Assembly (NCBI GenBank): GCA_964016885.1
Contig: OZ024740.1
Span: forward strand, 35,464,001-35,528,000
Source of the DNA: Eledone cirrhosa
Taxonomy: Eukaryota
Direction of reading: 5' to 3'
Length of the DNA stretch: 64,000 nucleotides
The notes beneath the pieces were generated by a model. That model made no database searches, was not told where the DNA came from, and saw only the letters and a program-made list of their open reading frames with translations. The position numbers and the translations under genes are program-made. Every line of letters begins with the position of its first letter. Position 1 is the stretch's first letter. This document shows positions 4,777-64,000 of this stretch, in pieces.

Positions 4777-4850
<74 letters not shown>

Positions 4851-4914: not shown

Positions 4915-5100
4915 CAGTGAAACTCCATTATAACGAAATTCCCGGGGGTATACAAAATTCGTTGTTACGAACAATTCTTTATAACTAGATGGACCGAATT
5001 AAGTCGAGCGTATGATGCTATTACCACGGTGATAGAAAAACCTATTCATTTTACTGAAAAATTCGTTATAATGGTATTCGTTATAAAGGAATTTTACCTG
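4915..5100. mobile_element. Tc1/mariner (pogo/Tigger-like) MITE flanked by TA
   Basis: TA|CAGTGAAACTCCATTATAACGAA ... TTCGTTATAAAGGAATTTTACCTG|TA imperfect TIRs with repeated tataacgaa motifs. An alternative right end is aattcactg|ta at 5152. Confidence 0.65.
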
Positions 5101-5156
5101 TAGTATATTACTGAAAAGATTTACTTGAATTTAATCATAACGAAATTCACTGTATA

Positions 5157-5592
5157 TCATCATCATCATTTTACGTCCACTTTTCCCTGCTAGCAAGGAT
5201 GGGACGGGTCCTATTCAGCACAGCATCTCTCCATTTTTCACGGTCTTTCGTCAACTCCTCCGTGACCTTCAGCAATAATAGGTCTGCTCTCATCACCTCC
5301 GCCCATGTTTTTCGTGGTCTTCCTCTACTGCATCTTCCTTCTACTGACATTTCTTGGCACTTCTTTACCCAGTGGTCATCCTTCATGCGCACCACATGCC
5401 CATACCATCTCAATCTTCTCACCCGCACACTACAATTTATACCTCTTATACACAGTTTCTCTCTCAATACATCCATGCTCGGTCGTTTACGTACATTGAC
5501 ATTGCACATCCAACGGAGCATGCTTGCTTCATTTCTCTCCAGCTGTCGCATATCCTCTGCAGTTGCTGCCCATGTCTCACTACTATGTATAC
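5157..5592 (-). mobile_element. 5'-truncated RTE-clade LINE, 3' end with (ATG)n tail
   Basis: ORF 5171-5611(-) contains SETW...MLRWMC...RRLRWYGHVVRM...GRCSRGRPRKTW...DREKWR, the typical RTE ORF C-terminus. A (CAT)n tail lies at 5157-5169. Confidence 0.92.
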
Positions 5593-5628
5593 TATAGATA
5601 ATTTTCAACAATATATAATCTTTTCCAG

Positions 5629-5739
5629 GAATCTCCTATTGATAATTTATCAACGAGTGGTTCGTCAGCAAGTGGTGTGCAAGGAAAAATTACCTTCGAA
5701 GATGTTGCTTTTAGATATCCTTCCCGACCTGATGCTCTT
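5629..5739 (+). CDS. ABCB1: Internal coding exon (111 bp, phase 0/0) of an ABCB1/MDR P-glycoprotein-like ABC transporter: TMD-to-NBD linker and start of the NBD
   Basis: tcttttccag|GAA...CTT|gtaagt with canonical splice sites. It translates ESPIDNLSTSGSSASGVQGKITFEDVAFRYPSRPDAL, matching the ABCB family pattern P.ID..S..G.....G.I.F..V.F.YPSRPD just before Walker A. From memory, the human ABCB1 exon KPSID...YPSRKEVK has the same boundaries. The exact paralog is uncertain. Confidence 0.88.
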
Positions 5740-5789
5740 GTAAGTATTTGAGACAATATAATGAAGCACCCAGTCAACTAATGATAGTA

Positions 5790-5850
5790 CAGGTAAAATT
5801 CCGTGCTACAAATACCGATATAACGAATATTTTAGTATAACGAAATTTTA
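5790..5850. mobile_element. Terminal fragment of the same Tc1/mariner-type MITE family
   Basis: TA|CAGGTAAAATTCC...ataccgatataacgaatattttagta resembles the reverse complement of 5050-5100. Confidence 0.55.
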
Positions 5851-6865
5851 ATTATATTTTCAATATTCAGCAAGGCCAGCCGTTACTCGCTCAGTATGCA
5901 AATGAGGCTAATCAGCCTATGCATGCTTCAGAAAATACTATATATTTTCAACCGTTCAATAGATTGGCAGAGAGCTAAATAGTCTCGATGAAGGGTAATG
6001 AGCTAGAAACATGTTAATTGTTCCTCGATGCCACTGTTGAACAAATGGATGACGATTGGACATCAAGGCACAGCACAGCTTTATCGAGCCGTTTGCTGAC
6101 AAACGGATCGAATATTATTTAAGAGACTATATTGTTAGATAAAAGGTGTAGTGGTTTAACAGACGACAGTTAGATGTAAGGTGTAGTGGTTTAACAGACG
6201 ACAGTTAGATGTAAGGTGTAGTGGTTTAACAGACGACAGTTAGATGTAAGGTGTAGTGGTTTAACAGGCGACAGTTAGATGTAAGTTGTAGTGGTTTAAC
6301 AGGCGACAGTTAGATGTAAGGTGTTGTGGTTTAACAGTCGACAGTTAGATGTAAGGTGTAGTGGTTTAACAGACGACAGTTAGATGTAAGGTGTAGTGGT
6401 TAAACAGACGACAGTTAGATGTAAGGTGTTGTGGTTTAACAGACGACAGTTAGATGTAAGGTGTAGTGGTTTAACAGACGACAGTTAGATGTAAGGTGTT
6501 GTGGTTTAACAGACGACAGTTAGATGTAAGGTGTAGTGGTTTAACAGACGACAGTTAGATGTAAGGTGTAGTGGTTAAACAGGTGACAGTTAGATGTAAG
6601 GTGTTGTGGTTTAACAGACGACAGTTAGATGTAATGTGTTGTGGTTTAACAGGCAACAGTTAGATGTAAGGTGTTGTCGTTTAACAGACGACAGTTAGAT
6701 GTAAGGTGTAGTGGTTTAACATACGACAGTTAGATGAAAGGTGTAGTGGTTTAACAGACGACACTTAGATGTAAGGTGTAGTGGTTAAACAGGTGACAGT
6801 TAGATGTAAGGTGTTGTGGTTTAACAGACAACAGTTAGATCAAAGGTGTTGTGGTTTAACAGACG

Positions 6866-9800
6866 ACAGTTAGATGTAAGGTGTTGTGGTTTAACAGGTG
6901 ACAGTTAGATGTAAGGTGTTGTGGTTTAACAGACGACAGTTAGATGTAAGGTGTTGTGGTTTAACAGGAGACAGTTAGATGTAATGTGTTGTGGTTTAAC
7001 AGGCAACAGTTAGATGTAAGGTGTTGTGGTTTAACAGACGACAGTTAGATGTAATGTGTTGTGGTTTAACAGGCAACAGTTAGATGTAAGGTGTTGTGGT
7101 TTAACAAGAGACAGTTAGATGTAATGTGTTGTGGTTTAACAGGCAACAGTTAGATGTAAGGTGTAGTGGTTTAACAGACGACAGTTAGATGTAAGGTGTT
7201 GTGGTTTAACAGACGACAGTTAGATGTAAGGTGTTGTTGTTTAACAGGTGACAGTTAGATGTAAGGTGTAGTGGTTTAACAGGTGACAGTTAGATGTAAG
7301 GTGTAGAGGTTTAACAGACGAGAGTTAGATGTAAGGTGTTGTGGTGTAACAGGCGACATATAGACGTAAGGTGTAGTGGTTTAATAGGCGACAGTTAGAT
7401 GTAAGGTGTTGCGGTTTAACAGGCGAAAGTTAGATGTAAAGTGTTGTGGTTTAACAGGCGACAGTTAGATGTAAGGTGTTGTGGTTTAACAGGCGAGAGT
7501 TAGATGTATGGTGTTGTCGTTAAACAGGCGACAGTTAGATGGAAGGTGTTGTGGTTTCACAGGTGACAGTTAGATGAAAGGTGTTGTGGTTTAACAGGCG
7601 ACAGTTAGATGTAAGGTGTTGTGGTTCAACAGGTGACAGTTAGATGTAAGGTGTTGAGGTTTAACAGGCGACAGTTAGATGTAAGGTGTTGTGGTTTAAC
7701 AGGCGACAGTGAGATGTAAGGTGTTGGTGGTATAACAGGCGACAGTTAGATGTAAGGTGTTGTGGTTTCACAGGTGACAGTTAGATGAAAGGTGTTGTGG
7801 TTTAACAGGCGACAGTTAGATGTAAGGTGTTGTGGTTTCACAGGTGACAGTTAGATGAAAGGTGTTGTGGTTTCACAGGTGACAGTTAGATGAAAGGTGT
7901 TGTGGTTTAACAGGCAACAGTTAGATGTAAGGTGTTGTGGTTCAACAGGCGACAGTTAGATGTAAGGTGTTTAGGTTTAACAGGTGACAGTTATATGTAA
8001 GGTGTTGTGGTTTAACAGGCGACAGTGAGATGTAAGGTGTTGTGGTTTAACAGACGACAGTGAGATGTAAGGTGTTGTGGTTTAACAGGTGACAGTTCGA
8101 CGTAAGGTGTTGTGGTTTAACAAACGTCAGTTAGATGTAAGGTGTTGTGGTACAACAGGCGACATTTAGATGTAAGGTGTTGTGGTTTAACAGGTGACAG
8201 TTAGATGTAAGGTGTTGTGGTTTAACAGGTGACAGTTAGATGTAAGGTGTAGGGGTTTAACAGGCAACAGTTGGATGTAAGGTGTTGTGGTTTAACAGGT
8301 GACAGTTAGATGTAAGATTTTGTGGTTTAACAGGCGACAGTTAGATGTAATGTCTTCTGGTTTAACAGGCAACAGTTAGATGTAAGGTGTTGTGGTTTAA
8401 CAGGTGACAGTTAGATGTAAGGTGTAGAGGTTTAACAGACGACAGTTAGATGTGAGGTGTTGTGGTTTAACAGGTGACAGTTAGATGTAAGGTGTGGTGG
8501 TTTAACAGGCGACAGTTAGATGTAAGGTGTTGTGGTTTAACAGGTGACAGCTAGATGTAAGATGTTGTGGTTTAACAGGTGACAGTTGTATGAAAGTTGT
8601 TGTGGTTCAACAGACGAGAGTTAAATGTAAGGTGTTGTGGTTTAACAGACGACAGTTAGATGTAATGTGTTGTTTAACAGACGTTAGTTAGATGTAAGGT
8701 GTAGTGGTTTAACAGGTGACAGTTAGATGTAAGGTGTTGTCGTTTAACAGGCGACAGTGAGATGTAAGTTGTTGTGGTTTAACAGGCGACAGTGAGATGT
8801 AAGGTGTTGTGGTTTAACAGGCGACAGTGAGATGTAAGGTGTAGTGGTTTAACAGGTGACAGTTAGATGTAAGATGTTGTGGTTTAACAGACGACAGTGA
8901 GATGTAAGGCGTTGTGGTTTAACAGGCGACAGTGAGATGTAAGGTGTTGTGGTTTAACAGGCGACAGTGAGATGTAAGGTGTAGTGGTTTAACAGGTGAC
9001 AGTTAGATGTATGGTGTTGTCGTTAAACAGGCGACAGTTAGATGGAAGGTGTTGTGGTTTCACAGGTGACAGTTAGATGAAAGGTGTTGTGGTTTAACAG
9101 GCGACAGTTAGATGTAAGGTGATGTGGTTCAACAGGTGACAGTTAGATGTAAGGTGTAGAGGTTTAACAGACGACAGTTAGATGTGAGGTGTTGTGGTTT
9201 AACAGGTGACAGTTAGATGTAAGGTGTGGTGGTTTAACAGGTGACAGTTAGATGTAAGGTGTTGTGGTTTAACAGGTGACAGTTAGATGTAAGATGTTGT
9301 GGTTTAACAGGTGACAGTTGTATGAAAGTTGTTGTGGTTCAACAGACGAGAGTTAAATGTAAGGTGTTGTGGTTTAACAGACGACAGTTAGATGTATTGT
9401 GTTGTGATTTCACAGGTGACTGTTAGATGTAAGGTGTTGTGGTTTAACAGGCGACAGTTAGATGTAAGGTGTTGTGGTTTAACAGGCGACAGTGAGATGT
9501 AAGGTGTTGTGGTTTAACAGGCGACAGTGAGATGTAAGGTGTAGTGGTTTAACAGGTGACAGTTAGATGTATGGTGTTGTCGTTAAACAGGCGACAGTTA
9601 GATGGAAGGTGTTGTGGTTTCACACGTGACAGTTAGATGTAAGGTGTTGTGGTTTAACAGGCGACAGTTAGATGTAAGGTGTTGTGGTTTAACAGGCGAC
9701 AGTTAGATGTAAGGTGTTGTCGTTTAACAGGCGACAGTTACATGGAAGGGGTTGTGGTTTAACAGGTGACAGTAAGATGTAAGGTGTTGGGGTTCAACAG

Positions 9801-12800
9801 GTGACAGTTAGATGTAAGGTGTAGTGGTTTAACAGACGACAGTTAGATGTAAGGTGTTGTGGTTTAACAGGTGACAGTTAGATGTAAGGTGTTGGGGTTC
9901 AACAGGCGACAGTTAGATGTAAGATGTTGTGGTTTAACAGGTGACAGTTGTATGAAAGTTGTTGTGGTTCAACAGACGAGAGTTAAATGTAAGGTGTTGT
10001 GGTTTAACAGACGACAGTTAGATGTAATGTGTTGTTTAACAGACGTTAGTTAAATGTAAGGTGTAGTGGTTTAACAGGTGACAGTAAGATGTAAGGTGTT
10101 GTCGTTTAACAGGCGACAGTGAGATGTAAGTTGTTGTGGTTTAACAGGCGACAGTGAGATGTAAGGTGTTGTGGTTTAACAGGCGACAGTGAGATGTAAG
10201 GTGTAGTGGTTTAACAGGTGACAGTTAGATGTACGGTGTTGTCGTTAAACAGGCGACAGTTAGATGTAAGGTGTTGTGGTTCAACAGGCGACAGTTAGAT
10301 GTAAGGTGTTGTGGTTTAACAGGCGACAGTGAGATGTTTTGTGTTGTGATTTCACAGGTGACAGTTAGATGTAAGGTGTTGTGGTTTAACATGCGACAGT
10401 TAGATGTAAGGTGTTGTGGTTTAACAGGCGACAGTTAGATGTAAGGTGTTGTGGTTTAACAGGCGACAGTTAGATGTAAGGTGTTGTGGTTTAACAGGCG
10501 ACAGTTAGATGTAAGGTGTTGTCGTTTAACAGGCGACAGTTACATGGAAGGGGTTGTGGTTTAACAGGTGACAGTTAGATGTAAGGTGTTGGGGTTCAAC
10601 AGGTGACAGTTAGATGTAAGATTTTGTGGTTTAACAGGCGACAGTTAGATGTAATGTCTTCTGGTTTAACAGGCAACAGTTAGATGTAAGGTGTTGTGGT
10701 TTAACAGGTGACAGTTAGATGTAAGGTGTTGTGGTTTAACAGACGACAGTTAGATGTAAGGTGTTGTGGTTTAACAGGAGACAGTTAGATGTAATGTGTT
10801 GTGGTTTAACAGGCAACAGTTAGATGTAAGGTGTTGTGGTTTAACAGACGACAGTTAGATGTAATGTGTTGTGGTTTAACAGGCAACAGTTAGATGTAAG
10901 GTGTTGTGGTTTAACAAGAGACAGTTAGATGTAATGTGTTGTGGTTTAACAGGCAACAGTTAGATGTAAGGTGTAGTGGTTTAACAGACGACAGTTAGAT
11001 GTAAGGTGTTGTGGTTTAACAGACGACAGTTAGATGTAAGGTGTTGTTGTTTAACAGGTGACAGTTAGATGTAAGGTGTAGTGGTTTAACAGGTGACAGT
11101 TAGATGTAAGGTGTAGAGGTTTAACAGACGAGAGTTAGATGTAAGGTGTTGTGGTGTAACAGGCGACATATAGACGTAAGGTGTAGTGGTTTAATAGGCG
11201 ACAGTTAGATGTAAGGTGTTGCGGTTTAACAGGCGAAAGTTAGATGTAAAGTGTTGTGGTTTAACAGGCGACAGTTAGATGTAAGGTGTTGTGGTTTAAC
11301 AGGCGAGAGTTAGATGTATGGTGTTGTCGTTAAACAGGCGACAGTTAGATGGAAGGTGTTGTGGTTTCACAGGTGACAGTTAGATGAAAGGTGTTGTGGT
11401 TTAACAGGCGACAGTTAGATGTAAGGTGTTGTGGTTCAACAGGTGACAGTTAGATGTAAGGTGTTGAGGTTTAACAGGCGACAGTTAGATGTAAGGTGTT
11501 GTGGTTTAACAGGCGACAGTGAGATGTAAGGTGTTGGTGGTATAACAGGCGACAGTTAGATGTAAGGTGTTGTGGTTTCACAGGTGACAGTTAGATGAAA
11601 GGTGTTGTGGTTTAACAGGCGACAGTTAGATGTAAGGTGTTGTGGTTTCACAGGTGACAGTTAGATGAAAGGTGTTGTGGTTTCACAGGTGACAGTTAGA
11701 TGAAAGGTGTTGTGGTTTAACAGGCAACAGTTAGATGTAAGGTGTTGTGGTTCAACAGGCGACAGTTAGATGTAAGGTGTTTAGGTTTAACAGGTGACAG
11801 TTATATGTAAGGTGTTGTGGTTTAACAGGCGACAGTGAGATGTAAGGTGTTGTGGTTTAACAGACGACAGTGAGATGTAAGGTGTTGTGGTTTAACAGGT
11901 GACAGTTCGACGTAAGGTGTTGTGGTTTAACAAACGTCAGTTAGATGTAAGGTGTTGTGGTACAACAGGCGACATTTAGATGTAAGGTGTTGTGGTTTAA
12001 CAGGTGACAGTTAGATGTAAGGTGTTGTGGTTTAACAGGTGACAGTTAGATGTAAGGTGTAGGGGTTTAACAGGCAACAGTTGGATGTAAGGTGTTGTGG
12101 TTTAACAGGTGACAGTTAGATGTAAGATTTTGTGGTTTAACAGGCGACAGTTAGATGTAATGTCTTCTGGTTTAACAGGCAACAGTTAGATGTAAGGTGT
12201 TGTGGTTTAACAGGTGACAGTTAGATGTAAGGTGTAGAGGTTTAACAGACGACAGTTAGATGTGAGGTGTTGTGGTTTAACAGGTGACAGTTAGATGTAA
12301 GGTGTGGTGGTTTAACAGGCGACAGTTAGATGTAAGGTGTTGTGGTTTAACAGGTGACAGCTAGATGTAAGATGTTGTGGTTTAACAGGTGACAGTTGTA
12401 TGAAAGTTGTTGTGGTTCAACAGACGAGAGTTAAATGTAAGGTGTTGTGGTTTAACAGACGACAGTTAGATGTAATGTGTTGTTTAACAGACGTTAGTTA
12501 GATGTAAGGTGTAGTGGTTTAACAGGTGACAGTTAGATGTAAGGTGTTGTCGTTTAACAGGCGACAGTGAGATGTAAGTTGTTGTGGTTTAACAGGCGAC
12601 AGTGAGATGTAAGGTGTTGTGGTTTAACAGGCGACAGTGAGATGTAAGGTGTAGTGGTTTAACAGGTGACAGTTAGATGTAAGATGTTGTGGTTTAACAG
12701 ACGACAGTGAGATGTAAGGCGTTGTGGTTTAACAGGCGACAGTGAGATGTAAGGTGTTGTGGTTTAACAGGCGACAGTGAGATGTAAGGTGTAGTGGTTT

Positions 12801-14539
12801 AACAGGTGACAGTTAGATGTATGGTGTTGTCGTTAAACAGGCGACAGTTAGATGGAAGGTGTTGTGGTTTCACAGGTGACAGTTAGATGAAAGGTGTTGT
12901 GGTTTAACAGGCGACAGTTAGATGTAAGGTGATGTGGTTCAACAGGTGACAGTTAGATGTAAGGTGTAGAGGTTTAACAGACGACAGTTAGATGTGAGGT
13001 GTTGTGGTTTAACAGGTGACAGTTAGATGTAAGGTGTGGTGGTTTAACAGGTGACAGTTAGATGTAAGGTGTTGTGGTTTAACAGGTGACAGTTAGATGT
13101 AAGATGTTGTGGTTTAACAGGTGACAGTTGTATGAAAGTTGTTGTGGTTCAACAGACGAGAGTTAAATGTAAGGTGTTGTGGTTTAACAGACGACAGTTA
13201 GATGTATTGTGTTGTGATTTCACAGGTGACTGTTAGATGTAAGGTGTTGTGGTTTAACAGGCGACAGTTAGATGTAAGGTGTTGTGGTTTAACAGGCGAC
13301 AGTGAGATGTAAGGTGTTGTGGTTTAACAGGCGACAGTGAGATGTAAGGTGTAGTGGTTTAACAGGTGACAGTTAGATGTATGGTGTTGTCGTTAAACAG
13401 GCGACAGTTAGATGGAAGGTGTTGTGGTTTCACACGTGACAGTTAGATGTAAGGTGTTGTGGTTTAACAGGCGACAGTTAGATGTAAGGTGTTGTGGTTT
13501 AACAGGCGACAGTTAGATGTAAGGTGTTGTCGTTTAACAGGCGACAGTTACATGGAAGGGGTTGTGGTTTAACAGGTGACAGTAAGATGTAAGGTGTTGG
13601 GGTTCAACAGGTGACAGTTAGATGTAAGGTGTAGTGGTTTAACAGACGACAGTTAGATGTAAGGTGTTGTGGTTTAACAGGTGACAGTTAGATGTAAGGT
13701 GTTGGGGTTCAACAGGCGACAGTTAGATGTAAGATGTTGTGGTTTAACAGGTGACAGTTGTATGAAAGTTGTTGTGGTTCAACAGACGAGAGTTAAATGT
13801 AAGGTGTTGTGGTTTAACAGACGACAGTTAGATGTAATGTGTTGTTTAACAGACGTTAGTTAAATGTAAGGTGTAGTGGTTTAACAGGTGACAGTAAGAT
13901 GTAAGGTGTTGTCGTTTAACAGGCGACAGTGAGATGTAAGTTGTTGTGGTTTAACAGGCGACAGTGAGATGTAAGGTGTTGTGGTTTAACAGGCGACAGT
14001 GAGATGTAAGGTGTAGTGGTTTAACAGGTGACAGTTAGATGTACGGTGTTGTCGTTAAACAGGCGACAGTTAGATGTAAGGTGTTGTGGTTCAACAGGCG
14101 ACAGTTAGATGTAAGGTGTTGTGGTTTAACAGGCGACAGTGAGATGTTTTGTGTTGTGATTTCACAGGTGACAGTTAGATGTAAGGTGTTGTGGTTTAAC
14201 AGGCGACAGTTAGATGTAAGGTGTTGTGGTTTAACAGGCGACAGTTAGATGTAAGGTGTTGTGGTTTAACAGGCGACAGTTAGATGTAAGGTGTTGTGGT
14301 TTAACAGGCGACAGTTAGATGTAAGGTGTTGTCGTTTAACAGGCGACAGTTACATGGAAGGGGTTGTGGTTTAACAGGTGACAGTTAGATGTAAGGTGTT
14401 GGGGTTCAACAGGTGACAGTTAGATGTAAGATTTTGTGGTTTAACAGGCGACAGTTAGATGTAATGTCTTCTGGTTTAACAGGCAACAGTTAGATGTAAG
14501 GTGTTGTGGTTTAACAGGTGACAGTTAGATGTAAGGTGT
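6866..14539 (+). repeat. Higher-order tandem duplication, period 3810 bp (109 monomers)
   Basis: Marker aacaggag at 6963 and 10773; ORF pairs 9871/13681 and 10229/14039 are offset by 3810, which equals 109x35+1-3-3. Confidence 0.92.
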
Positions 14540-17500
14540 AGAGGTTTAACAGACGACAGTTAGATGTGAGGTGTTGTGGTTTAACAGGTGACAGTTAGAT
14601 GTAAGGTGTGGTGGTTTAACAGGCGACAGTTAGATGTAAGGTGTTGTGGTTTAACAGGTGACAGCTAGATGTAAGATGTTGTGGTTTAACAGGTGACAGT
14701 TGTATGAAAGTTGTTGTGGTTCAACAGACGAGAGTTAAATGTAAGGTGTTGTGGTTTAACAGACGACAGTTAGATGTAATGTGTTGTTTAACAGACGTTA
14801 GTTAGATGTAAGGTGTTGTCGTTTAACAGGCGACAGTGAGATGTAAGTTGTTGTGGTTTAACAGGCGACAGTGAGATGTAAGGTGTTGTGGTTTAACAGG
14901 CGACAGTGAGATGTAAGGTGTAGTGGTTTAACAGGTGACAGTTAGATGTATGGTGTTGTCGTTAAACAGGCGACAGTTAGATGTAAGGTGTTGTGGTTCA
15001 ACAGGCGACAGTTAGATGTAAGGTTTTGTGGTTTAACAGGTGACAGTTAGATGTAAGATGTTGTGGTTTAACAGACGACAGTGAGATGTAAGGTGTTGTG
15101 GTTTAACAGGCGACAGTGAGATGTAAGGTGTTGTGGTTTAACAGGCGACAGTGAGATGTAAGGTGTAGTGGTTTAACAGGTGACAGTTAGATGTATGGTG
15201 TTGTCGTTAAACAGGCGACAGTTAGATGGAAGGTGTTGTGGTTTCACAGGTGACAGTTAGATGAAAGGTTTTGTGGTTTAACAGGCGACAATTAGATGTA
15301 AGGTGATGTGGTTCAACAGGTGACAGTTAGATGTAAGGTGTAGAGGTTTAACAGACGACAGTTAGATGTGAGGTGTTGTGGTTTAACAGGTGACAGTTAG
15401 ATGTAAGGTGTGGTGGTTTAACAGGCGACAGTTAGATGTAAGGTGTTGTGGTTTAACAGGTGACAGTTAGATGTAAGATGTTGTGGTTTAACAGGTGACA
15501 GATGTATGAAAGTTGTTGTGGTTCAACAGACGAGAGTTAAATGTAAGGTGTTGTGGTTTAACAGACGACAGTTAGATGTATTGTGTTGTGATTTCACAGG
15601 TGACTGTTAGATGTAAGGTGTTGTGGTTTAACAGGCGACAGTTAGATGTAAGGTGTTGTGGTTTAACAGGCGACAGTGAGATGTAAGGTGTTGTGGTTTA
15701 ACAGCCGACAGTGAGATGTAAGGTGTAGTGGTTTAACAGACGACAGTTAGATGTAAGGTGTGGTTTAACAGGTGACAGTTAGATGTAAGGGGTTGGGGTT
15801 CAACAGGCGACAGTTAGATGGAAGGTGTTGTGGTTTAACAGGTGACAGTTAGATGTAAGGTGTTGTGCTTTAACAGGCGACAGTGAGATGTAAGGTGTTT
15901 TGGTTTAACAGACGACAGTGAGATGTAAGGTGTTGTGGTTTAAAAGGTGACAGTTCGATGTAAGATGTTGTGGTTTAACAGGTGACAGTTAGATGCAAGG
16001 TGTAGGAGTTTAACAAGCAACAGTTAGATGTAAGGTGTTGTGGTTTAACAGGTGACAGTTAGATGGAAGATTTTGTGGTTTAACAGGCGACAGTTAGATG
16101 TAAGGTGTAGTGGTTTAACAGACGACAGTTAGATGTAAGGTGTAGTGGTTTAACAGACGACAGTTAGATGTAAGGTGTAGTGGTTCAACAGAAGACAGTT
16201 AGATGTAAGGTGTAGTGGTTCAACAGGCGACAGTTAGATGTAAGGTGTCCTGGTTTAACAGACGACAGTTAGATCTAAGTTTTAGTGGTTTAACAGACGA
16301 CAGTTAGATGTAAGCTGTAGTGGTTCAACAGACGACAGTTAAATGTAAGGTGTTGTGGTTTAACAGGTGAAAGTTAGATGTAAGGTGTAGTGGTTTAACA
16401 GACGGCAGTTAGATGTAAGGTGTAGTGGTTTAATAGGCGACAGTTAGATGTAAGGTGTAGTCGTTTAACAGACGAGACTTAAATGTAAGGTGTTGTGGTT
16501 TAACAGGCGACAGTTAGATGTAAGGTGTTGTGGTTTAACAGACGTCAGTTAGATGTAAGGTGTTGTGGTCCAACGGACGAGAGTTAAATGTAAGGTGTTG
16601 TGGTTTAACAGACGACAGTTAGATGTAATGAGTCGTTTAACAGTCGTTAGTTAGATGTAAGGTGTAGTGGTTTAACAGGTGACAGTTAGATGTAAGGTGT
16701 TGTCGTTTAACAGGCGACAGTTAGATGGAAGGTGTTGTGGTTCAACATGCGACAGTTAGATGTATGGTGTTGTGGTTTAACAGGCGACAGTGACATGTAA
16801 GATTTTTTTGTTTAACAGGCGACAGTGAGATGTAAGGTGTTGTGGTTTAACAGGCGACAGTGAGATGTAAGGTGTTGTGGTTCAACAGGCGACAGTTATA
16901 TGTATGGTGTTGTGGTTTAACAGGCGACAGTGACATGTAAGATGTTGTGGTTTAACAGGCGACAGTGAGATGTAAGGTGTAGTAGTTTAACAGGTGACAG
17001 TTAGGTGTAAGGTATAGTGGTTTAACAGGCGACAGTTAGATGTAAGGTGTTGTGGTTTAAGAGGCGACACTGAGATGTAAGGTGTTGTGGTTCAACAGGC
17101 GACAGTTAGATGTAAGGTGTTGTCGTTTAACAGGCAACAGTTAGATGGAAGGTGTTGTGGTTTAACAGGTGACAGTGAGATGTAAGGTATAGTGGTTTAA
17201 CAGGCGACAGTGAGATGTAAGGTGTTGTGGTTCAACAGGCGACAGTTAGATGTAAGGTTTTGTGGTTTAACAGGTGACAGTTAGATGTAAGGTGTTGTGG
17301 TTTAACAGACGACATTGAGATGTAAGGTGTTGTGGTTTAACAGGTGACAGTTAGATGTAAGATGTTGTGGTTTAACAGACGACAGTGAGATGTAAGGTGT
17401 TGTGGTTTAACAGGCGACAGTGAGATGTAAGGTGTTGTGGTTCAACAGGCGACGGTTAGATGTATGGTGTTGTGGTTTAACAGGTGACAGTTAGATGTAA

Positions 17501-39900: not shown

Positions 39901-39946
39901 AAGATGTAAGGTGTAGTGGTTTAACAGGTGACAGTTAGATGTATGA

Positions 39947-51900: not shown

Positions 51901-52102
51901 ACAGTGAGATGTGAGGTGTTGTGGTTCAACAGGCGATAGTGAGATGTAAGGTGTTGTGGTTTAACAGGTGACAGTTAGATGTAAGGTGTTGTGGTTTAAC
52001 AGGCGACAGTGAGTTGTAAGGTGTAGAGGTTTAACAGACGACAATGAGATGTAAGGTGTTGTCGTTAAACAGGCGACAGTTAGATGGAAGGTGTTGTGGT
52101 TT
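39947..52102 (+). repeat. Higher-order tandem duplication, period 6055 bp (173 monomers)
   Basis: Insertion marker aggtgaacag at 42586 and 48641; deletion marker ggtatgtgg at 44426 and 50481; both offsets are 6055. Confidence 0.9.
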
Positions 52103-55100
52103 CACAGGTGACAGTTAGATGTAAGGTGTTGTGGTTTCACAGGTGACAGTTAGATGAAAGGTGTTGTGGTTTAACAGGCGACAGTTAGATGTAAGGTGTT
52201 GAGGTTTAACAGGTGACAGTTAGATGTAAGGTGTTGTGGTTTAACACGCAACAGTTAGATGTAAGGTGTTGTGGTTCAACAGGCGACAGTTAGATGTAAG
52301 GTGTTGTGGTTTAACACGCAACAGTTAGATGTAAGGTGTTGTGGTTTAACAGGCGACAGTGAGATGTAACGTGTTGTGGTTTAACAGGCGACGGTTAGAT
52401 GTAATGTGTTGTGGTTTAACAGACGACAGTGAGATGTAAGGTGTTGTGGTTTAACAGGTGACAGTTCGACGTAAGGTGTTGTGGTTTAACAAACGTCAGT
52501 TAGATGTAAGGTGTTGTGGTTCAACAGGCGACATTTAGATGTAAGGTGTTGTGGTTTAACAGGTGACAGTTAGATGTAAGGTGTTGAGGTTTAACAGGCG
52601 ACAGTGAGATGTAAGGTGTTGTGGTTTAACAGACGACAGTGAGATGTAAGGTGTTGTGGTTTAACAGGTGACAGTTCGACGTAAGGTGTTGTGGTTTAAC
52701 AAACGTCAGTTAGATGTAAGGTGTTGTGGTTCAACAGGCGACATTTAGATGTAAGGTGTTGTGGTTTAACAGGTGACAGTTAGATGTAAGGTGTTGAGGT
52801 TTAACAGGCGACAGTGAGATGTAAGGTGTTGTGGTTTAACAGACGACAGTGAGATGTAAGGTGTTGTGGTTTAACAGGTGACAGTTAGATGTAAGGTGTT
52901 GAGGTTTAAGAGGCGACAGTGAGATGTAAGGTGTTGTGGTTTAACAGACGACAGTGAGATGTAAGGTGTTGTGGTTTAACAGGTGACAGTTCGACGTAAG
53001 GTGTTGTGGTTTAACAAACGTCAGTTAGATGTAAGGTGTTGTGGTTCAACAGGCGACATTTAGATGTAAGGTGTTGTGGTTTAACAGGTGACAGTTAGAT
53101 GTAAGGTGTTGTGGTTTAACAGGTGTCATTTAGATGTAAGGTATAGGGGTTTAACAGGCAACAGTTGGATGTAAGGTGTTGTGGTTCAACAGGTGACAGT
53201 TAGCCGTAAGATGTTGTGGTTTAACAGGCGACAGTTAGATGTAATGTCTTCTGGTTTAACAGGCAACAGTTAGATGTAAGGTGTTGTGGTTTAACAGGTG
53301 ACAGTTAGATGTAAGGTGTAGAGGTTTAACAGACGACAGTTAGATGTGAGGTGTTGTGGTTTAACAGGTGACAGTTAGATGTAAGGTGTGGTGGTTTAAC
53401 AGGCGACAGTTAGATGTAAGGTGTTGTGGTTTAACAGGTGACAGTTAGATGTAAGATGTTGTGGTTTAACAGGTGACAGTTGTATGAAAGTTGTTGTGGT
53501 TCAACAGACGAGAGTTAAATGTAAGGTGTTGTGGTTTAACAGACGACAGTTAGATGTAATGTGTTGTTTAACAGACGTTAGTTAGATGTAAGGTGTAGTG
53601 GTTTAACAGGTGACAGTTAGATGTAAGGTGTTGTCGTTTAACAGGCGACAATGAGATGTAAGTTGTTGTGGTTTAACAGGCGACAGTGAGATGTAAGGTG
53701 TTGTGGTTTAACAGGCGACAGTGAGATGTAAGGTGTAGTGTTTTAACAGGTGACAGTTAGATGTATGGTGTTGTCGTTAAAGAGGCGACAGTTAGATGTA
53801 AGGTGTTGTGGTTTAACAGACGTCAGTTAGATGTAAGGTGTTGTGGTTCAACAGACGAGAGTTAAATGTAAGGTGTTGTGGTTTAACAGACGACAGTTAG
53901 ATGTAGAGTGTTGTCGTTTAACAGGCGACAGTTAGATTGAAGGTGTTGTGGTTTAACCGGTGACAGATAGATGTAAGCTATAGTGGTTTAACAGGCGACA
54001 GTTAGATGTAAGGTGTTGTGGTTTAACAGGCGACGGTTAGATGTAAGGTGTTGTGGTTTAACAGGTGACAGTTAGATGTAAGGTGTTGTGGTTTAACAGG
54101 CGACAGTGAGTTGTAAGGTGTTGTGGTTTAACAGGCGACAGTGAGATGTAAGGTGTAGTGGTTTAACAGGTGACAGTTAGATGTATGGTGTTGTCGTTAA
54201 ACAGGCGACAGTTAGATGGAAGGTGTTTTGGTTTCACAGGTGACAGTTAGATGAAAGGTGTTGTGGTTTCACAGGTGACAGTTAGATGAAAGGTGTTGTG
54301 GTTTAACAGGCGACAGTTAGATGTAAGTTGTTGTGGTTCAACAGGTGACAGTTAGATGTAAGGTGTTGAGGTTTAACAGGTGACAGTTAGATGTAAGTTG
54401 TTGTGGTTTAACAGGCAACAGTTAGATGTAAGGTGTTGTGGTTCAACAGGCGACAGTTAGATGTAAGGTGTTGAGGTTTAACAGGTGACAGTTATATGTA
54501 AGGTGTTGTGGTTTAACAGGCGACAGTGAGATGTAAGGTGTTGTGGTTTAACAGACGACAGTGAAATGTAAGGTGTTGTGGTTTAACAGGTGACAGTTCG
54601 ACGTAAGGTGTTGTGGTTTAACAAACGTCAGTTAGATGTAAGGTGTTGTGGTTCAACAGGCGACATTTAGATGTAAGATGTTGTGGTTTAACAGGTGACA
54701 GTTAGATGTAAGGTGTTGTGGTTTAACAGGTGACAGTTAGATGTAAGGTGTAGGGTTTAACAGGCAACAGTTGGATGTAAGGTGTTGTGGTTTAACAGCT
54801 AACAGTTAGATGTAAGATTTTGTGGTTTAACAGGCGACAGTTAGATGTAATGTCTTCTGGTTTAACAGGCAACAGTTAGATGTAAGGTGTTGTGATTAAA
54901 CAGGTGACAGTTTGATGTAAGGTGTAGAGGTTTAACAGACGACAGTTAGATGTGAGGTGTTGTGGTTTAACAGGTGACAGTTAGATGTAAGGTGTGGTGG
55001 TTTAACAGGCGACAGTGAGATGTAAGGTGTTGTGGTTTAACAGGCGACAGTGAGATGTAAGGTGTAGTGGTTTAACAGGTGACAGTTAGATGTATGATGT

Positions 55101-58100
55101 TGTCGTTAAACAGGCGACAGTTAGATATAAGGTGTTGTGGTTCAACAGGCGACAGTTAGATGTAAGGTGTTGTGGTTTCATAGGTGATAGTTAGATGTAA
55201 GGTGTTGTGGTTTAAGAGGCCACAGTTAGATGTAAGGTGTTGTGGTTCAACAGGCGACAGTTAGATGTATGGTGTTGTGGTTTAACAGGTGACAGTTAGA
55301 TGTAAGGTGTTGTGGTTTAACAGGCGACAGTGAGATGTAAGGTGTAGTGGGTTAACGGGTGACAGTTAGATGTAAGGTGTTGTCGTTTAACAGGCAACAG
55401 TTAGATGGAAGGTGTTGTGGTTTAACAGGTGACAGTTAGATGTAAGGTATAGTGGTTTAACAGGCGACAGTGAGATGTAAGTTGTTGTGGTTCAACAGGC
55501 GACAGTGAGATGTGAGGTGTTGTGGTTCAACAGGCGACAGTGAGATGTAAGGTGTTGTGGTTTAACAGGTGACAGTTAGATGTAAGGTGTTGTGGTTTAA
55601 CAGGCGACAGTGAGTTGTAAGGTGTAGAGGTTTAACAGACGACAATGAGATGTAAGGTGTTGTCGTTAAACAGGCGACAGTTAGATGGAAGGTGTTGTGG
55701 TTTCACAGGTGACAGTTAGATGTAAGGTGTTGTGGTTTCACAGGTGACAGTTAGATGAAAGGTGTTGTGGTTTAACAGGCGACAGTTAGATGTAAGGTGT
55801 TGAGGTTTAACAGGTGACAGTTAGATGTAAGGTGTTGTGGTTTAACACGCAACAGTTAGATGTAAGGTGTTGTGGTTCAACAGGCGACAGTTAGATGTAA
55901 GGTGTTGTGGTTTAACACGCAACAGTTAGATGTAAGGTGTTGTGGTTTAACAGGCGACAGTGAGATGTAAGGTGTTGTGGTTTAACAGGCGACGGTTAGA
56001 TGTAATGTGTTGTGGTTTAACAGACGACAGTGAGATGTAAGGTGTTGTGGTTTAACAGGTGACAGTTCGACGTAAGGTGTTGTGGTTTAACAAACGTCAG
56101 TTAGATGTAAGGTGTTGTGGTTCAACAGGCGACATTTAGATGTAAGGTGTTGTGGTTTAACAGGTGACAGTTAGTTGTAAGGTGTTGAGGTTTAACAGGC
56201 GACAGTGAGATGTAAGGTGTTGTGGTTTAACAGACGACAGTGAGATGTAAGGTGTTGTGGTTTAACAGGTGACAGTTCGACGTAAGGTGTTGTGGTTTAA
56301 CAAACGTCAGTTAGATGTAAGGTGTTGTGGTTCAACAGGCGACATTTAGATGTAAGGTGTTGTGGTTTAACAGGTGACAGTTAGATGTAAGGTGTTGAGG
56401 TTTAACAGGCGACAGTGAGATGTAAGGTGTTGTGGTTTAACAGACGACAGTGAGATGTAAGGTGTTGTGGTTTAACAGGTGACAGTTAGATGTAAGGTGT
56501 TGAGGTTTAAGAGGCGACAGTGAGATGTAAGGTGTTGTGGTTTAACAGACGACAGTGAGATGTAAGGTGTTGTGGTTTAACAGGTGACAGTTCGACGTAA
56601 GGTGTTGTGGTTTAACAAACGTCAGTTAGATGTAAGGTGTTGTGGTTCAACAGGCGACATTTAGATGTAAGGTGTTGTGGTTTAACAGGTGACAGTTAGA
56701 TGTAAGGTGTTGTGGTTTAACAGGTGTCATTTAGATGTAAGGTATAGGGGTTTAACAGGCAACAGTTGGATGTAAGGTGTTGTGGTTTAACAGGTGACAG
56801 TTAGCCGTAAGATGTTGTGGTTTAACAGGCGACAGTTAGATGTAATGTCTTCTGGTTTAACAGGCAACAGTTAGATGTAAGGTGTTGTGGTTTAACAGGT
56901 GACAGTTAGATGTAAGGTGTAGAGGTTTAACAGACGACAGTTAGATGTGAGGTGTTGTGGTTTAACAGGTGACAGTTAGATGTAAGGTGTGGTGGTTTAA
57001 CAGGCGACAGTTAGATGTAAGGTGTTGTGGTTTAACAGGTGACAGTTAGATGTAAGATGTTGTGGTTTAACAGGTGACAGTTGTATGAAAGTTGTTGTGG
57101 TTCAACAGACGAGAGTTAAATGTAAGGTGTTGTGGTTTAACAGACGACAGTTAGATGTAATGTGTTGTTTAACAGACGTTAGTTAGATGTAAGGTGTAGT
57201 GGTTTAACAGGTGACAGTTAGATGTAAGGTGTTGTCGTTTAACAGGCGACAATGAGATGTAAGTTGTTGTGGTTTAACAGGCGACAGTGAGATGTAAGGT
57301 GTTGTGGTTTAACAGGCGACAGTGAGATGTAAGGTGTAGTGTTTTAACAGGTGACAGTTAGATGTATGGTGTTGTCGTTAAAGAGGCGACAGTTAGATGT
57401 AGGGTGTTGTGGTTTAACAGACGTCAGTTAGATGTAAGGTGTTGTGGTTCAACAGACGAGAGTTAAATGTAAGGTGTTGTGGTTTAACAGACGACAGTTA
57501 GATGTAGAGTGTTGTCGTTTAACAGGCGACAGTTAGATTGAAGGTGTTGTGGTTTAACCGGTGACAGATAGATGTAAGCTATAGTGGTTTAACAGGCGAC
57601 AGTTAGATGTAAGGTGTTGTGGTTTAACAGGCGACGGTTAGATGTATGGTGTTGTGGTTTAACAGGTGACAGTTAGATGTAAGGTGTTGTGGTTTAACAG
57701 GCGACAGTGAGTTGTAAGGTGTTGTGGTTTAACAGGCGACAGTGAGATGTAAGGTGTAGTGGTTTAACAGGTGAGAGTTAGATGTATGGTGTTGTCGTTA
57801 AACAGGCGACAGTTAGATGGAAGGTGTTTTGGTTTCACAGGTGACAGTTAGATGAAAGGTGTTGTGGTTTCACAGGTGACAGTTAGATGAAAGGTGTTGT
57901 GGTTTAACAGGCGACAGTTAGATGTAAGTTGTTGTGGTTCAACAGGTAACAGTTAGATGTAAGGTGTTGAGGTTTAACAGGTGACAGTTAGATGTAAGGT
58001 GTTGTGGTTTAACAGGCGGCAGTTAGATGTAAGGTGTTGAGGTTTAACAGGTGACAGTTATATGTAAGGTGTTGTGGTTTAACAGGCGACAGTGAGATGT

Positions 58101-58600
58101 AAGGTGTTGTGGTTTAACAGACGACAGTGAAATGTAAGGTGTTGTGGTTTAACAGGTGACAGTTCGACGTAAGGTGTTGTGGTTTAACAAACGTCAGTAA
58201 GATGTAAGGTGTTGTGGTTCAACAGGCGACATTTAGATGTAAGATGTTGTGGTTTAACAGGTGACAGTTAGATGTAAGGTGTTGTGGTTTAACAGGTGAC
58301 AGTTAGATGTAAGGTGTAGGGTTTAACAGGCAACAGTTGGATGTAAGGTGTTGTGGTTTAACAGCTAACAGTTAGATGTAAGATTTTGTGGTTTAACAGG
58401 CGACAGTTAGATGTAATGTCTTCTGGTTTAACAGGCAACAGTTAGATGTAAGGTGTTGTGATTAAACAGGTGACAGTTTGATGTAAGGTGTAGAGGTTTA
58501 ACAGACGACAGTTAGATGTGAGGTGTTGTGGTTTAACAGGTGACAGTTAGATGTAAGGTGTGGTGGTTTAACAGGCGACAGTTAGATGTAAGGTGTTGTG
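51420..58600 (+). repeat. Higher-order tandem duplication, period about 3601 bp (103 monomers)
   Basis: Markers aggtgtcatt at 53121/56722 and gtagagtg at 53903/57504. The copies differ at several sites and by one monomer. Boundaries are approximate. Confidence 0.82.
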
Positions 58601-61600
58601 GTTTAACAGGTGACAGTTAGATGTAAGATGTTGTGGTTTAACAGGTGAAAGTTGTATGAAAGTTGTTGTGGTTCAACAGACGAGAGTTAAATGTAGGGTG
58701 TTGTGGATTAACGGACGGCAGTTAGATGTAATGTGTTGTTTAACAGACGTTAGTTAGATGTAAGGTGTAGTGGTTTAACAGGTGACAGTTAGATGTAAGG
58801 TGTTGTCGTTTAACAGGCGACAGTGAGATGTAAGTTGTTGTGGTTTAACAGGCGACAGTGAGATGTAAGGTGTTGTGGTTTAACAGGCGACAGTGAGATG
58901 TAAGTTGTAGTGGTTTAACAGGTGACAGTTAGATGTATGGTGTTGTCGTTAAACAGGCGACAGTTAGATGTAAGGTGTTGTGGTTTAACAGGCGACAGTG
59001 AGATGTATTGTGTTGTGATTTCACAGGTGACAGTTAGATGTAAGGTGTTGTGGTTTAACAGGCGACAGTTAGATGTAAGGTGTTGTGGTTTAACAGGCGA
59101 CAGTGAGATGTAAGGTGTTGTGGTTTAACAGGGCACAGTGAGATGTAAGGTGTAGTGGTTTAACAGGTGACAGTTAGATGTATGGTGTTGTCGTTAAACA
59201 GGCGACAGTTAGATGGAAGGTGTTGTGGTTTCACAGGTGACAGTTAGATGTAAGGTGTTGTGGTTTAACAGGCGACAGTTAGATGTAAGGTGTTGTGGTT
59301 CAACAGGCGACAGTTAGATGTAAGGTTTTGTGGTTTAACAGGTGACAGTTAGATGTAAGGTGTTGTGGTTTAACAGACGACAGTGAGATGTAAGGTGTTG
59401 TGGTTTAACAGGTGACAGTTAGATGTAAGATGTTGTGGTTTAACAGCCGACAGTGAGATGTAAGGTGTTGTGGTTTAACAGGCGACAGTGAGATGTAAGG
59501 TGTTGTGGTTTAACAGGCGACAGTGAGATGTAAGGTGTTGTGGTTTAACAGGCGACAGTGAGTTGTAAGGTGTTGTGGTTTAACAGGCGACAGTGAGATG
59601 TAAGGTGTAGTGGTTATACAGGTGACAGTTAGATGTATGGTGTTGTCGTTAAACAGGCGACAGATAGATGGAAGGTGTTGTGGTTTCACAGGTGACAGTT
59701 ATATGAAAGGTGTTGTGGTTTAACAGGCGACAGTTAGATGTAAGGTGTTGTGGTTCAACAGGTGACAGTTAGATGTAAGGTGTTGAGGTTTAAAAGGTGA
59801 CAGTTAGATGTAAGGTTTTGTGGTTTAACATGCAACAGTTAGATGTAAGGTGTTGTGGTTCAACAGGCGACAGTTAGATGAAAGGTGTTGTTGTTTAACA
59901 GGCGACAGTGAGATGTAAGGTGTAGTGGTTTAACAGGTGACAGTTAGATGTATGATGTTGTCGTTAAACAGGCGACAGTTAGATGTAAGGTGTTGTGGTT
60001 CAACAGGCGACAGTTAGATGTAAGGTGTTGTGGTTTCACAGGTGATAGTTAGATGTAAGGTGTTGTGGTTTAAGAGGCGACAGTTAGATGTAAGGTGTTG
60101 TGGTTCAACAGGCGACAGTTAGATGTATGGTGTTGTGGTTTAACAGGTGACAGTTAGATGTAAGGTGTTGTGGTTTAACAGGCGACAGTGAGATGTAAGG
60201 TGTAGTGGGTTAACGGGTGACAGTTAGATGGAAGGTGTTGTGGTTTAAGAGGCGACAGTTAGATGTAAGGTGTTGTGGTTCAACAGGTGACAGTTAGATG
60301 AAAGGTGTTGTGGTTTAACAGGCGACAGTTAGATGTAAGGTGTTGTGGTTCAACAGGTGACAGTTAGATGTAAGGTGTTGAGGTTTAACAGGTGACAGTT
60401 AGATGTAAGGTGTTGTGGTTTATCACGCAACAGTTAGATGTAAGGTGTTGTGGTTCAACAGGCGACAGTTAGATGTAAGGTGTTGAGGTTTAACGAGCGA
60501 CAGTGAGATGTAAGGTGTTGTGGTTTAAGAGGTGACAGTTAGATGTAAGATGTTGTGGTTTAACAGGTGACAGTTGTATGAAAGTTGTTGTGGTTCAACA
60601 GACGAGAGTTAAATGTAAGGTGTTGTGGTTTAACAGACGACAGTTAGATGTAATGTGTTGTTTAACAGACGTTAGTTAGATGTAAGGTGTAGTGGTTTAA
60701 CAGGCGACAGTGAGATGGAAGGTGTTGTGCTTTAACAGGCGACAGTGAGATGTAAGGTGTAGTGGTTTAACAGGTGACAGTTAGATGTATGGTGTTGTCG
60801 TTAAACAGGCGACAGTTAGATGTAAGGTATTGTGGTTTAACAGACGTCAGTTAGATGTAAGGTGTTGTGGTTCAACAGACGAGAGTTAAATGTAAGGTGT
60901 TGTGGTTTAACAGGTGACAGTTAGATGTAAGGTGTTGTCGTTTAACAGGCGACAGTGACATGTAAGTTGTTGTGGTTTAACAGGCGACAGTGAGATGTAA
61001 GGTGTAGTGGTTTAACAGGTGACAGTTAGATGTATGGTGTTGTCGTTAAACAGGCGACAGTTAGATGTAAGGTGTTGTGGTTCAACAGGCGACAGTTAGA
61101 TGTAAGGTGTTGTGGTTTAACAGGCGACATTGAGATGTATTGTGTTGTGATTTCACAGGTGACAGTTAGATGTAAGGTGTTGTGGTTTAACAGGCGACAG
61201 TGAGATGTAAGGTGTTTTGGTTTAACAGACGACAGTGAGATGTAAGGTGTTGTGGTTTAAAAGGTGACAGTTCGATGTAAGGTGTTGTGGTTTAACAGGT
61301 GACAGTTAGATGCAAGGTGTAGGAGTTTAACAAGCAACAGTTAGATGTAAGGTGTTGTGGTTTAACAGGTGACAGTTAGATGGAAGATTTTGTGGTTTAA
61401 CAGGCGACAGTTAGATGTAAGGTGTAGTGGTTTAACAGACGACAGTTAGATGTAAGGTGTAGTGGTTTAACAGACGACAGTTAGATGTAAGGTGTAGTGG
61501 TTTAACAGAAGACAGTTAGATGTAAGGTGTAGTGGTTCAACAGGCGACAGTTAGATGTAAGGTGTCCTGGTTTAACAGACGACAGTTAGATCTAAGTTTT

Positions 61601-64000
61601 AGTGGTTTAACAGACGACAGTTAGATGTAAGCTGTAGTGGTTCAACAGACGACAGTTAAATGTAAGGTGTTGTGGTTTAACAGGTGAAAGTTAGATGTAA
61701 GGTGTAGTGGTTTAACAGACGTCAGTTAGATGTAAGGTGTAGTGGTTTAATAGGCGACAGTTAGATGTAAGGTGTAGTGGTTTAACAGACGAGAGTTAAA
61801 TGTAAGGTGTTGTGGTTTAACAGGCGACAGTTAGATGTAAGGTGTTGTGGTTTAACAGGCGACAGTTAGATGTAAGGTGTTGTGGTTTAACAGACGACAG
61901 TTAGATGTAATGAGTCGTTTAACAGTCGTTAGTTAGATGTAAGGTGTAGTGGTTTAACAGGTGACAGTTAGATGTAAGGTGTTGTCGTTTAACAAGCGAC
62001 AGTTAGATGGAAGGTGTTGTGGTTCAACATGCGACAGTTAGATGTATGGTTTTGTGGTTTAACAGGCGACAGTGACATGTAAGATGTTGTGGTTTAACAG
62101 GCGACAGTGAGATGTAAGGTGTTGTGGTTTTACAGGCGACAGTGAGACGTAAGGTGTAGTGGTTTAACAGGTGACAGTTAGTTGTAACGTATAGTGGTTT
62201 AACAGGCGACAGTTAGATGTAAGGTGTTGTGGTTTAAGAGGCGACAGTGAGATGTAAGGTGTTGTGGTTCAACAGGCGACAGTTAGATGTAAGGTGTTGA
62301 GGTTTAACAGGTGACAGTTAGATGTAAGGTGTTGTGGTTTAACAGGCGACAGTGAGATGTAAGGTGTAGTTGGTTAACGGGTGACAGTTAGATGTAAGGT
62401 GTTGTCGTTTAACAGGCAAAAGTTAGATGGAAGGTGTTGTGGTTTAACAGGTGACAGTGAGATGTAAGGTATAGTAGTTTAACAGGCGACAGTGAGATGT
62501 AAGGTGTTGTGGTTCAACAGGCGACAGTTAGATGTAAGGTTTTGTGGTTTAACAGGTGACAGTTAGATGTAAGGTGTTGTGGTTTAACAGACGCAGTGAG
62601 ATGTAAGGTGTTGTGGATTAACAGGCGACAGTGAGATGTAAGGTGTTGTGGTTTAACAGGCGACAGTGAGATGTAAGGTGTTGTGGTTTAACAGGCGACA
62701 GTGAAATGTAAGGTGTAGTGGTTTAACAGGTGACAGTTAGATGTATGATGTTGTCGTTAAACAGGCGACAGTTAGATGTAAGGTGTTGTGGTTCAACAGG
62801 CGAAAGTTAGATGTAAGGTGTTGTGGTTTCACAGGTGATAGTTAGATGTAAGGTGTTGTGGTTTAAGAGGCGACAGTTAGATGTAAGGTGTTGTGGTTCA
62901 ACAGGCGACAGTTAGATGTAAGGTGTTGTCGTTTAACAGGCGACAGTGAGATGTAAGTTGTTGTGGTTTAACAGGCGACAGTGAGATGTAAGGTGTTGTG
63001 GTTTAACAGGCGACAGTGAGATGTAAGGTGTAGTGGTTTAACAGGTGACAGTTAGATGTATGGTGTTGTCGTTAAACAGGCGACAGTTAGATGTAAGGTG
63101 TTGTGGTCTAACAGACGTCAGTTAGATGTAAGGTGTTGTGGTTCAACAGACGAGAGTTAAATGTAAGGTGTTGTGGTTTAGCAGACGACAGTTAGATGTA
63201 AGGTGTAGTTGTTTAACAGGTGACAGTTAGATGTAGGGTGTTGTCGTTTAACAGGCGACAGTTAGATTGAAGGTGTTGTGGTTTAACCGGTGACAGTTAG
63301 ATGTAAGGTATAGTGGTTTAACAGGCGACAGTTAGATGTAAGGTGTTGTGGTTTAACAGGCGACAGCGAGATGTAAGGTGTTGTGGTTCAACAGGCGACG
63401 GTTAGATGTATGGTGTTGTGGTTTAACAGGTGACAGTTAGATGTAAGGTGTTGTGGTTTAACAGGCGACAGTGAGTTGTTAGGTGTTGTGGTTTAACAGG
63501 CGACAGTGAGATGTAAGGTGTAGTGGTTTAACAGGTGACAGTTAGATGTATGGTGTTGTCGTTAAACAGGCGACAGTTTGATGGAAGGTGTTGTGGTTTC
63601 ACAGGTGACAGTTAGATGAAAGGTGTTATGGTTTAACAGGCGACAGTTAGATGTAAGGTGTTGTGGTTCAACAGGTGACAGTTAGATGTAAGGTGTTGAG
63701 GTTTAACAGGTGACAGTTAGATGTAAGGTGTTGTGGTTTAACAGGCGACAGTGAGATGTAAGGTGTTGTGGTTTAACAGACGACAGTGAGATGTAAGGTG
63801 TTGTGGTTTAACAGGTGACAGTTCGACGTAAGGTGTTGTGGTTTAACAAACGTCAGTTAGATGTAAGGTGTTGTGGTTCAACAGGCGACATTTAGATGTA
63901 ACGTGTTGTGGTTTAACAGGTGACAGTTAGATGTAAGGTGTTGTGGTTTAACAGGTGACAGTTATATGTAAGGTGTAGTGGTTTAACAGACGACAGTTAG

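Follow-up and report, generated by a model that had tools for sequence, protein, structure and literature searches.

A 303-kb intron filled by a locus-private minisatellite in an ABCB1/P-glycoprotein gene of the octopod Eledone cirrhosa

An ABCB1 gene with a giant satellite-filled intron

A 64,000-nucleotide stretch of the Eledone cirrhosa genome (assembly GCA_964016885.1, contig OZ024740.1, hereafter C1, positions 35,464,001-35,528,000), called here the window, contains a coding exon of an ABCB1/P-glycoprotein gene, copy B, and the first part of an intron consisting almost entirely of 35-bp tandem repeats. An earlier reading of the letters of the window (the original prediction) had proposed an ABCB1/P-glycoprotein-like gene with a giant satellite intron and called for a search for its neighbouring exons. 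Exons were found on both sides, on a gap-free stretch, in order, in phase and in an open frame, and the downstream ABCB exons on the same scaffold include the Walker A exon and the rest of the gene. The gene is a full-length octopod ABCB1/P-glycoprotein transporter with a giant satellite-filled intron.

Coding exon 9 (our numbering) lies on the plus strand at window positions 5629..5739. It is 111 bp long with phase 0/0 and encodes 37 residues (ESPIDN...FRYPSRPDAL) that form the end of the first membrane half and the start of the first nucleotide-binding domain (NBD1); its best matches among solved structures are P-glycoprotein, BSEP and ABCB1 (best E 1.7e-10). The intron before it (7,817 bp) has its 3' splice site at 5609..5628 (plus strand), ending in ttccag, and the 5' splice site of the giant intron (5740..5745, plus strand) reads gtaagt, so that the exon is intact with canonical splice sites, as had been described. 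The window was also rightly said to lack a preceding exon in 1-5628 and a Walker A exon: the previous exon ends at C1:35,461,811, 2,190 bp short of the window, and the Walker A exon, with its acceptor, lies beyond the window at C1:35,772,289-35,772,414. Because the latter begins at C1:35,772,289 in phase 0, the intron after exon 9 is 302,549 bp long, five times what the window shows. Its non-satellite 5' part (5740..6133, plus strand) measures 394 bp, in agreement with the spacer of about 395 bp first reported, but this spacer is not unique: it holds a dispersed repeat of about 275 bp at ~5843-6119, a part covered by 38 of the 43 listed matches at 82-88% identity, and exon 9 and flank as a whole have a 99% copy at C1:34,443,632.

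The copy B gene spans C1:35,418,881-35,992,324 (~573 kb). With exon placement guided by octopod proteins, 26 coding exons were placed, amounting to 1,206 codons with a single stop at the terminus; a further likely coding exon lies at C1:35,418,881-35,418,950, and the start-codon exon was not pinned down. All 25 modelled introns of copy B, and likewise all 25 of its sister copy A, have GT-AG ends. Both copies encode transmembrane domain (TMD)-NBD-TMD-NBD in one open frame, and in both NBDs the Walker A, LSGGQ signature, Walker B and H-loop are intact as read from the translation. For a neighbouring exon, the closest named proteins are the MDR1-like proteins of Argonauta and Octopus (81-84% identity). 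A homolog search using a membrane exon gave no match at E 1e-8. Since all remaining exons were located, an orphan duplicated exon is ruled out. From its family, the encoded pump would be expected to export xenobiotics at the expense of ATP. About 0.9 kb upstream of the real NBD2 Walker A exon there is also a decayed short duplicate of part of that exon, in B (C1:35,980,715-35,980,795) as in A (34,745,470-34,745,550).

The 35-bp array is private to two introns

The array begins at window position 6134, and the part within the window (6134..64000, plus strand; 57.9 kb) has a period of 35 with 1,656 copies and 88% matches. The more than 57.8 kb of 35-bp satellite originally noted thus stand, and the array continues to C1:35,767,610, for a total of 297,477 bp, or 98% of the 302,549-bp intron. 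It comprises 8,513 head-to-tail units of 1,153 distinct variants in one orientation and contains no N; no inserted element was seen in it at 4-kb resolution.

Large satellites are hard to assemble, and over-expansion or a misjoin inside the repeat might have inflated the array length. A misjoin near 6134 had been raised at the outset as a possible flaw; there is no gap or N at this point or within the array. The 1,153 unit variants, the gradual shift along the array in divergence from the window k-mers and the longest exact internal repeat of 100 units (3.5 kb), which long reads can bridge, all argue against an artefact, as do the exons that resume in order past the array, just as they do in A. 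An assembly artefact is therefore very improbable.

A search of the whole 3.0-Gb assembly places the unit nowhere else than in this intron and in the equivalent intron of copy A. All 967 exact 33-mer matches fall in the two introns (775 in B and 192 in A), as do all 8,522 matches at up to two mismatches (6,504 in B and 2,018 in A), the latter all on the sense strand. A centromeric or genome-wide satellite is thus ruled out for the 35-bp unit.

The two arrays have little in common beyond the unit itself. In copy A, the equivalent intron is 91,867 bp long with an 88.9-kb array, and the repeat begins at the matching point. Only 80 unit variants are common to the 1,153 of B and the 471 of A, and the longest exact run common to both arrays is 3 units, while the unique flanks differ by 0.86-0.98%; the B array is therefore not a concatenation of A. 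Because the arrays share such short runs despite nearly identical flanks, they appear to have turned over independently and much faster than the flanks. Higher-order duplications are patchy and local (roughly 50-260 units), the longest exact internal repeat in A being 124 units; a fixed higher-order repeat is ruled out because the best period differs from block to block. A flank of ~1.7 kb after the array in A (34,533,250-34,534,960) is apparently absent in B at C1:35,767,612, where a deletion seems to have trimmed the 3' edge of the B array.

Copies A and B and the older paralog M

Copy A lies at ~C1:34.39-34.76 Mb, 1.03 Mb upstream of B, to which it is 99% identical with equal exon lengths and an open frame. 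The interval between the two copies holds an older paralog, M, in which the corresponding intron is 2,688 bp long and bears no trace of the 35-bp unit (its closest 20-mer match has 6 mismatches). When a pair of late exons served as DNA query, only A and B emerged as close copies among the 40 candidates scored. A quick tree built from 14 proteins places A and B with O. vulgaris P0124, and M with O. sinensis P0126 and O. bimaculoides P0127 (support 100 and 94); A and B sit on a long branch of 0.46, and the terminal branch of B (0.011) is longer than that of A (0.0033). The 35-bp repeat probably arose in the A/B lineage after its split from M and before the duplication that produced A and B.

The 1.853 Mb surrounding the locus contain only two 200-N gaps, each just downstream of a copy, with no N inside the A or B gene. 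Past the assembly gap, on the minus strand at C1:36,070,823-36,119,216, there is an inverted ~99% copy of M's terminal exons and 3' flank, which may be a partial duplicate, a leftover haplotype or a mis-oriented piece.

This arrangement could mean that A and B are two haplotypes of one gene set in tandem by the assembly, in which case the 89-kb and 297-kb arrays would be alleles. Their ~0.9-1.0% divergence could be heterozygosity, and the stretch from M to B is bounded by the two gaps, with the inverted 3' end of M following the second. However, the sequence shared by the two copies ends near C1:34.14 Mb upstream of A and near 35.30 Mb upstream of B, and beyond the shared part A borders on a different 47-bp array and B on a 59-bp array and gene M; the fetched stretches are free of N (34.19-34.275 Mb was not fetched). 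The repeat trailing both copies is also present at the start of the M-B stretch, as would be expected from the order A-M-B, and the lack of any A-B array run above 3 units is likewise difficult to reconcile with alleles. Two haplotypes placed in tandem are thus an improbable explanation.

Purifying selection on the ATP-binding halves

Twenty-two codons differ between A and B, 3 of them synonymously and 19 nonsynonymously. All 19 nonsynonymous differences fall within the membrane halves, 3 of them in the first and 16 in the second; exons 9-12 do not differ. Flank rates were taken after dropping segments with >6% mismatch or poor alignment, which lowers the expectation. From the overall flank rate of 104/12,089, 11.3 nonsynonymous changes are expected in the 1,312 sites of the NBDs and linker, and none is found (P ~1e-5). 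For NBD1 alone, none is found versus 9.1 expected at the local flank rate (P 1e-4); for NBD2 alone, none versus 1.6 expected is uninformative. Nonsynonymous changes number 20.5 in the membrane halves versus 0 elsewhere (Fisher P 3e-6). These counts point to purifying selection on the ATP-binding halves since the A/B split, with both copies apparently kept as producers of a pump. Thus, the satellite-filled intron would have been spliced during that time.

The second membrane half has 17.5 nonsynonymous changes, where the gene-wide flank rate predicts 6.3 (P 1e-4) and the local rate 9.5 (P 0.017, for a region picked post hoc); membrane nonsynonymous changes compared with all synonymous sites give P 0.08. 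Positive selection in this half is suggestive only. Five of the amino-acid differences (exons 16-23) sit within nine residues of one helix, and several align to human P-glycoprotein (P-gp) residues N721, F983 and A987 and, by way of the rat sequence (offset by three residues), to F759. In the available part of PMC7312539, F759, F983 and A987 are ligand-contacting residues of P-gp, and in that of PMC6981391, N721, F759 and F983 are pocket residues. It is possible that the substrate range changed recently between A and B. Among the 19 sites, O. vulgaris P0124 agrees with A at 6 and with B at 2 where it matches one copy. When tested as a source of gene conversion, M equals A at 2 sites and B at 3, with 14 sites matching neither or unmapped, and several M positions are mis-mapped in this comparison.

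Probable transcription and splicing through the array

None of the available sequencing runs is recorded as RNA; run X4, from a second sample, has no recorded type. One X4 contig (record 32; 288 letters, depth 2.8) places 75 of its 288 letters on window positions 5667-5741 with no mismatch and leaves the window at donor+2, where exon 10 (starting GT-T) would first differ from the intron (GT-A); the loose letters are not displayed. Five array bins have a depth of 0 in X4 versus >13,000 in X1-X3. Paralog M is excluded as the source of the contig (51 of 73 letters identical there). This contig hints at splicing to the Walker A exon for A or B, and is not proof for B.

The polyadenylation hexamer AATAAA has no occurrence on either strand of either array, and the best acceptor score in the unit is -5.4 (-4.4 in the common variant) versus -3.3 for the weakest real acceptor (leave-one-out). 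Recursive (ratchet) splicing encoded by the unit is ruled out, as the unit has no strong 3' splice site abutting a 5' splice site, its acceptor being too weak; the donor-like motif is equalled by 11% of 5,000 shuffles and hence not beyond chance. A structured RNA is rejected as well: six units fold at z -3.3, yet the minimum-energy structure has a frequency of 0.0008 and the centroid is nearly open. Rfam gave no match in window positions 3400-8000.

These observations are best explained by a locus-private minisatellite that has grown locally in an intron of an intact ABCB1 gene and is carried as a tolerated passenger, transcribed and spliced out (probability roughly 0.64). The 35-bp minisatellite would grow inside one intron through local unequal exchange or slippage, RNA polymerase II (Pol II) would read through the array, and the spliceosome would bridge the 302.5 kb between exon 9 and the Walker A exon. 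The lack of a polyadenylation hexamer and of a usable 3' splice site in the unit may be why the array is tolerated: the transcript would not be ended, nor would pseudo-exons form. Both copies would thereby stay pump-making while their membrane halves diverge, at the cost of a few extra hours of transcription. That Pol II transcribes more than 58 kb of satellite, as first proposed, is likely for copy B in view of the intact, constrained frame and the one junction-like contig.

Several points weigh against this interpretation. The junction evidence is one contig, with a depth of 2.8 and from a run whose type is not recorded; A and B do not differ there, so that the 92-kb copy is a possible source. 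The selection statistics give an average since the split, in which a recent silencing of B would not show. Furthermore, the sense strand of the B array carries ~6,400 donor-like GTAAG motifs, which score 7.3 versus 7.6 for the true donor and might disturb splicing. Such motifs, in their thousands, and the longer branch of B would fit a copy B that was recently silenced or attenuated, its array being too long to transcribe or heterochromatic, with protein made from A only. However, the 26 exons of B show no stop, frameshift or broken splice site and no NBD change, and relaxed constraint would spread changes to the NBDs, in conflict with their confinement to the membrane halves. Silencing of B is accordingly considered quite unlikely.

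Surrounding arrays and the question of a timer

In the 1.853 Mb around the locus, the region to which this census applies, 54% of the sequence belongs to tandem arrays of 1 kb or more; the share is 45% in gene A and 62% in gene B. Other introns carry unrelated 58-, 45-, 71-, 28- and 24-bp arrays, the largest of which is a 97.6-kb array of a 28-bp unit in an intron of M (C1:34,903,109-35,000,661); a further intron of M holds a 30.7-kb array of a 24-bp unit (C1:35,013,461-35,044,182). Intergenic arrays reach ~72 kb and ~195 kb. Upstream of the located exons of A lies a 47-bp array of ~195 kb (C1:34,181,412-34,377,919), the middle part of which (34.19-34.275 Mb) was not fetched, and upstream of those of B one of 65 kb (C1:35,338,634-35,403,665); both may be intergenic or belong to a 5' intron that was not mapped. 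Of the arrays in the region, the 35-bp one is the largest, but it is of the same kind as the others. With 54% of the region in large arrays, both intronic and intergenic, it looks like a tolerated passenger.

The original prediction suggested, in addition, that array length could tune expression or timing. On this account, the 303-kb intron would delay or lower B relative to A (92 kb) and M (2.7 kb), and would have been selected together with an altered drug pocket. Pol II elongates at 1-2 kb/min, which gives an estimated intron transit of 2.5-5 h for B versus 0.8-1.5 h for A, and most amino-acid change in the quick tree is on the B branch. Timing roles have also been proposed for Drosophila giant introns in the available part of PMC6508621. 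However, other arrays vary both ways between A and B, as drift predicts: the 58-bp array measures 46.8 kb in A and 21.9 kb in B, and the 47-bp arrays ~195 and 65 kb. The donor-like motif of the unit, matched by 11% of shuffles, also speaks against a tuning device. No supporting sign was found for tuning in a region where unrelated arrays abound and where three neighbouring paralogs have introns of 2.7, 92 and 303 kb, and such a tuning role is unlikely. It is just as unlikely that array length serves as a heritable timer or dosage dial in a somatic detoxification gene outside a sex-chromosome programme, setting the copy with the longest array and a recently remodelled drug pocket, a newly specialised pump, apart in expression from its sister copy.

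Comparison with known giant introns

According to the available part of PMC6508621, the Drosophila Y-linked genes kl-3 and kl-5 have satellite-filled giant introns, and that of PMC11207136 describes repeat-containing giant introns in the Drosophila autosomal genes Pzl, Myo81F and Mitf and in mammalian Dystrophin. Like kl-3 and kl-5, as there described, ABCB1 B is a protein-coding gene with a very large intron that is almost wholly tandem repeat (98%). Its intron, however, measures 0.3 Mb rather than megabases, and the repeat is a locus-private 35-bp unit rather than a simple satellite; arrays make up 62% of the gene versus >99%, the gene encodes a xenobiotic pump, and the array is gap-free. 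The conservation of intron size while the repeat changes, a feature of the Drosophila type in those accounts, is not seen among the three paralogs (2.7, 92 and 303 kb). The Drosophila type is further marked by Y linkage, spermatocyte expression and dedicated RNA-binding proteins; ABCB1 B sits on C1, a contig of 443 Mb.

ABCB1 B shares with Pzl, Myo81F, Mitf and Dystrophin an intron of >100 kb with repetitive DNA in a non-Y gene, and at 302,549 bp it is among introns of hundreds of kilobases, at the lower end of the range in the available part of PMC11207136. As presented there, the introns of those genes have assembly gaps or a size conserved between human and mouse, whereas ABCB1 has one pure array that differs threefold between 99%-identical copies. 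The encoded protein resembles other octopod MDR1-like proteins (P0124, P0126 and P0127; P0122 and P0123 of Argonauta) in being a full TMD-NBD-TMD-NBD ABCB protein, 55-58% identical to them; unlike these, it is duplicated as A and B on a long branch. A literature search mostly without subscription journals found no report of satellite-filled introns or ABCB1 duplication in cephalopods, and the available part of PMC6962438 reports few satellites in the squid genome, from a fragmented assembly.

Satellite-filled giant introns have been described mostly in Drosophila genes with incompletely assembled arrays. In ABCB1 B the whole 297-kb array is assembled without a gap, inside an intact and constrained gene, with built-in comparisons in a 99%-identical copy that has a third of the array and in an older paralog that has none. 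The 19 nonsynonymous differences allow RNA reads to be assigned to A or B, which makes it testable whether the array is a cost, a timer or neutral. The locus is an unusually good test case, in which the array is most likely a passenger. It further suggests a substantial contribution of runaway locus-private minisatellites to the size of introns and of the genome in this octopod, and genes with giant introns of this kind may be split by annotation pipelines.

Other features of the window and region

Pfam gave no match for either of two minus-strand features in the window upstream of exon 9. One is a high-copy fragment at 5171-5587 that sits just upstream of the acceptor of exon 9, which we take to be a LINE-like 3' fragment. 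The other, at 290-1347, consists of broken reading frames that presumably derive from the end of a Penelope-like retroelement, which they resemble in a reverse transcriptase tail and endonuclease. Downstream of copy B, directly past the gap, C1:36,023,742-36,033,828 holds ~10 kb of a 615-bp repeat with >99.9% identity between its copies.

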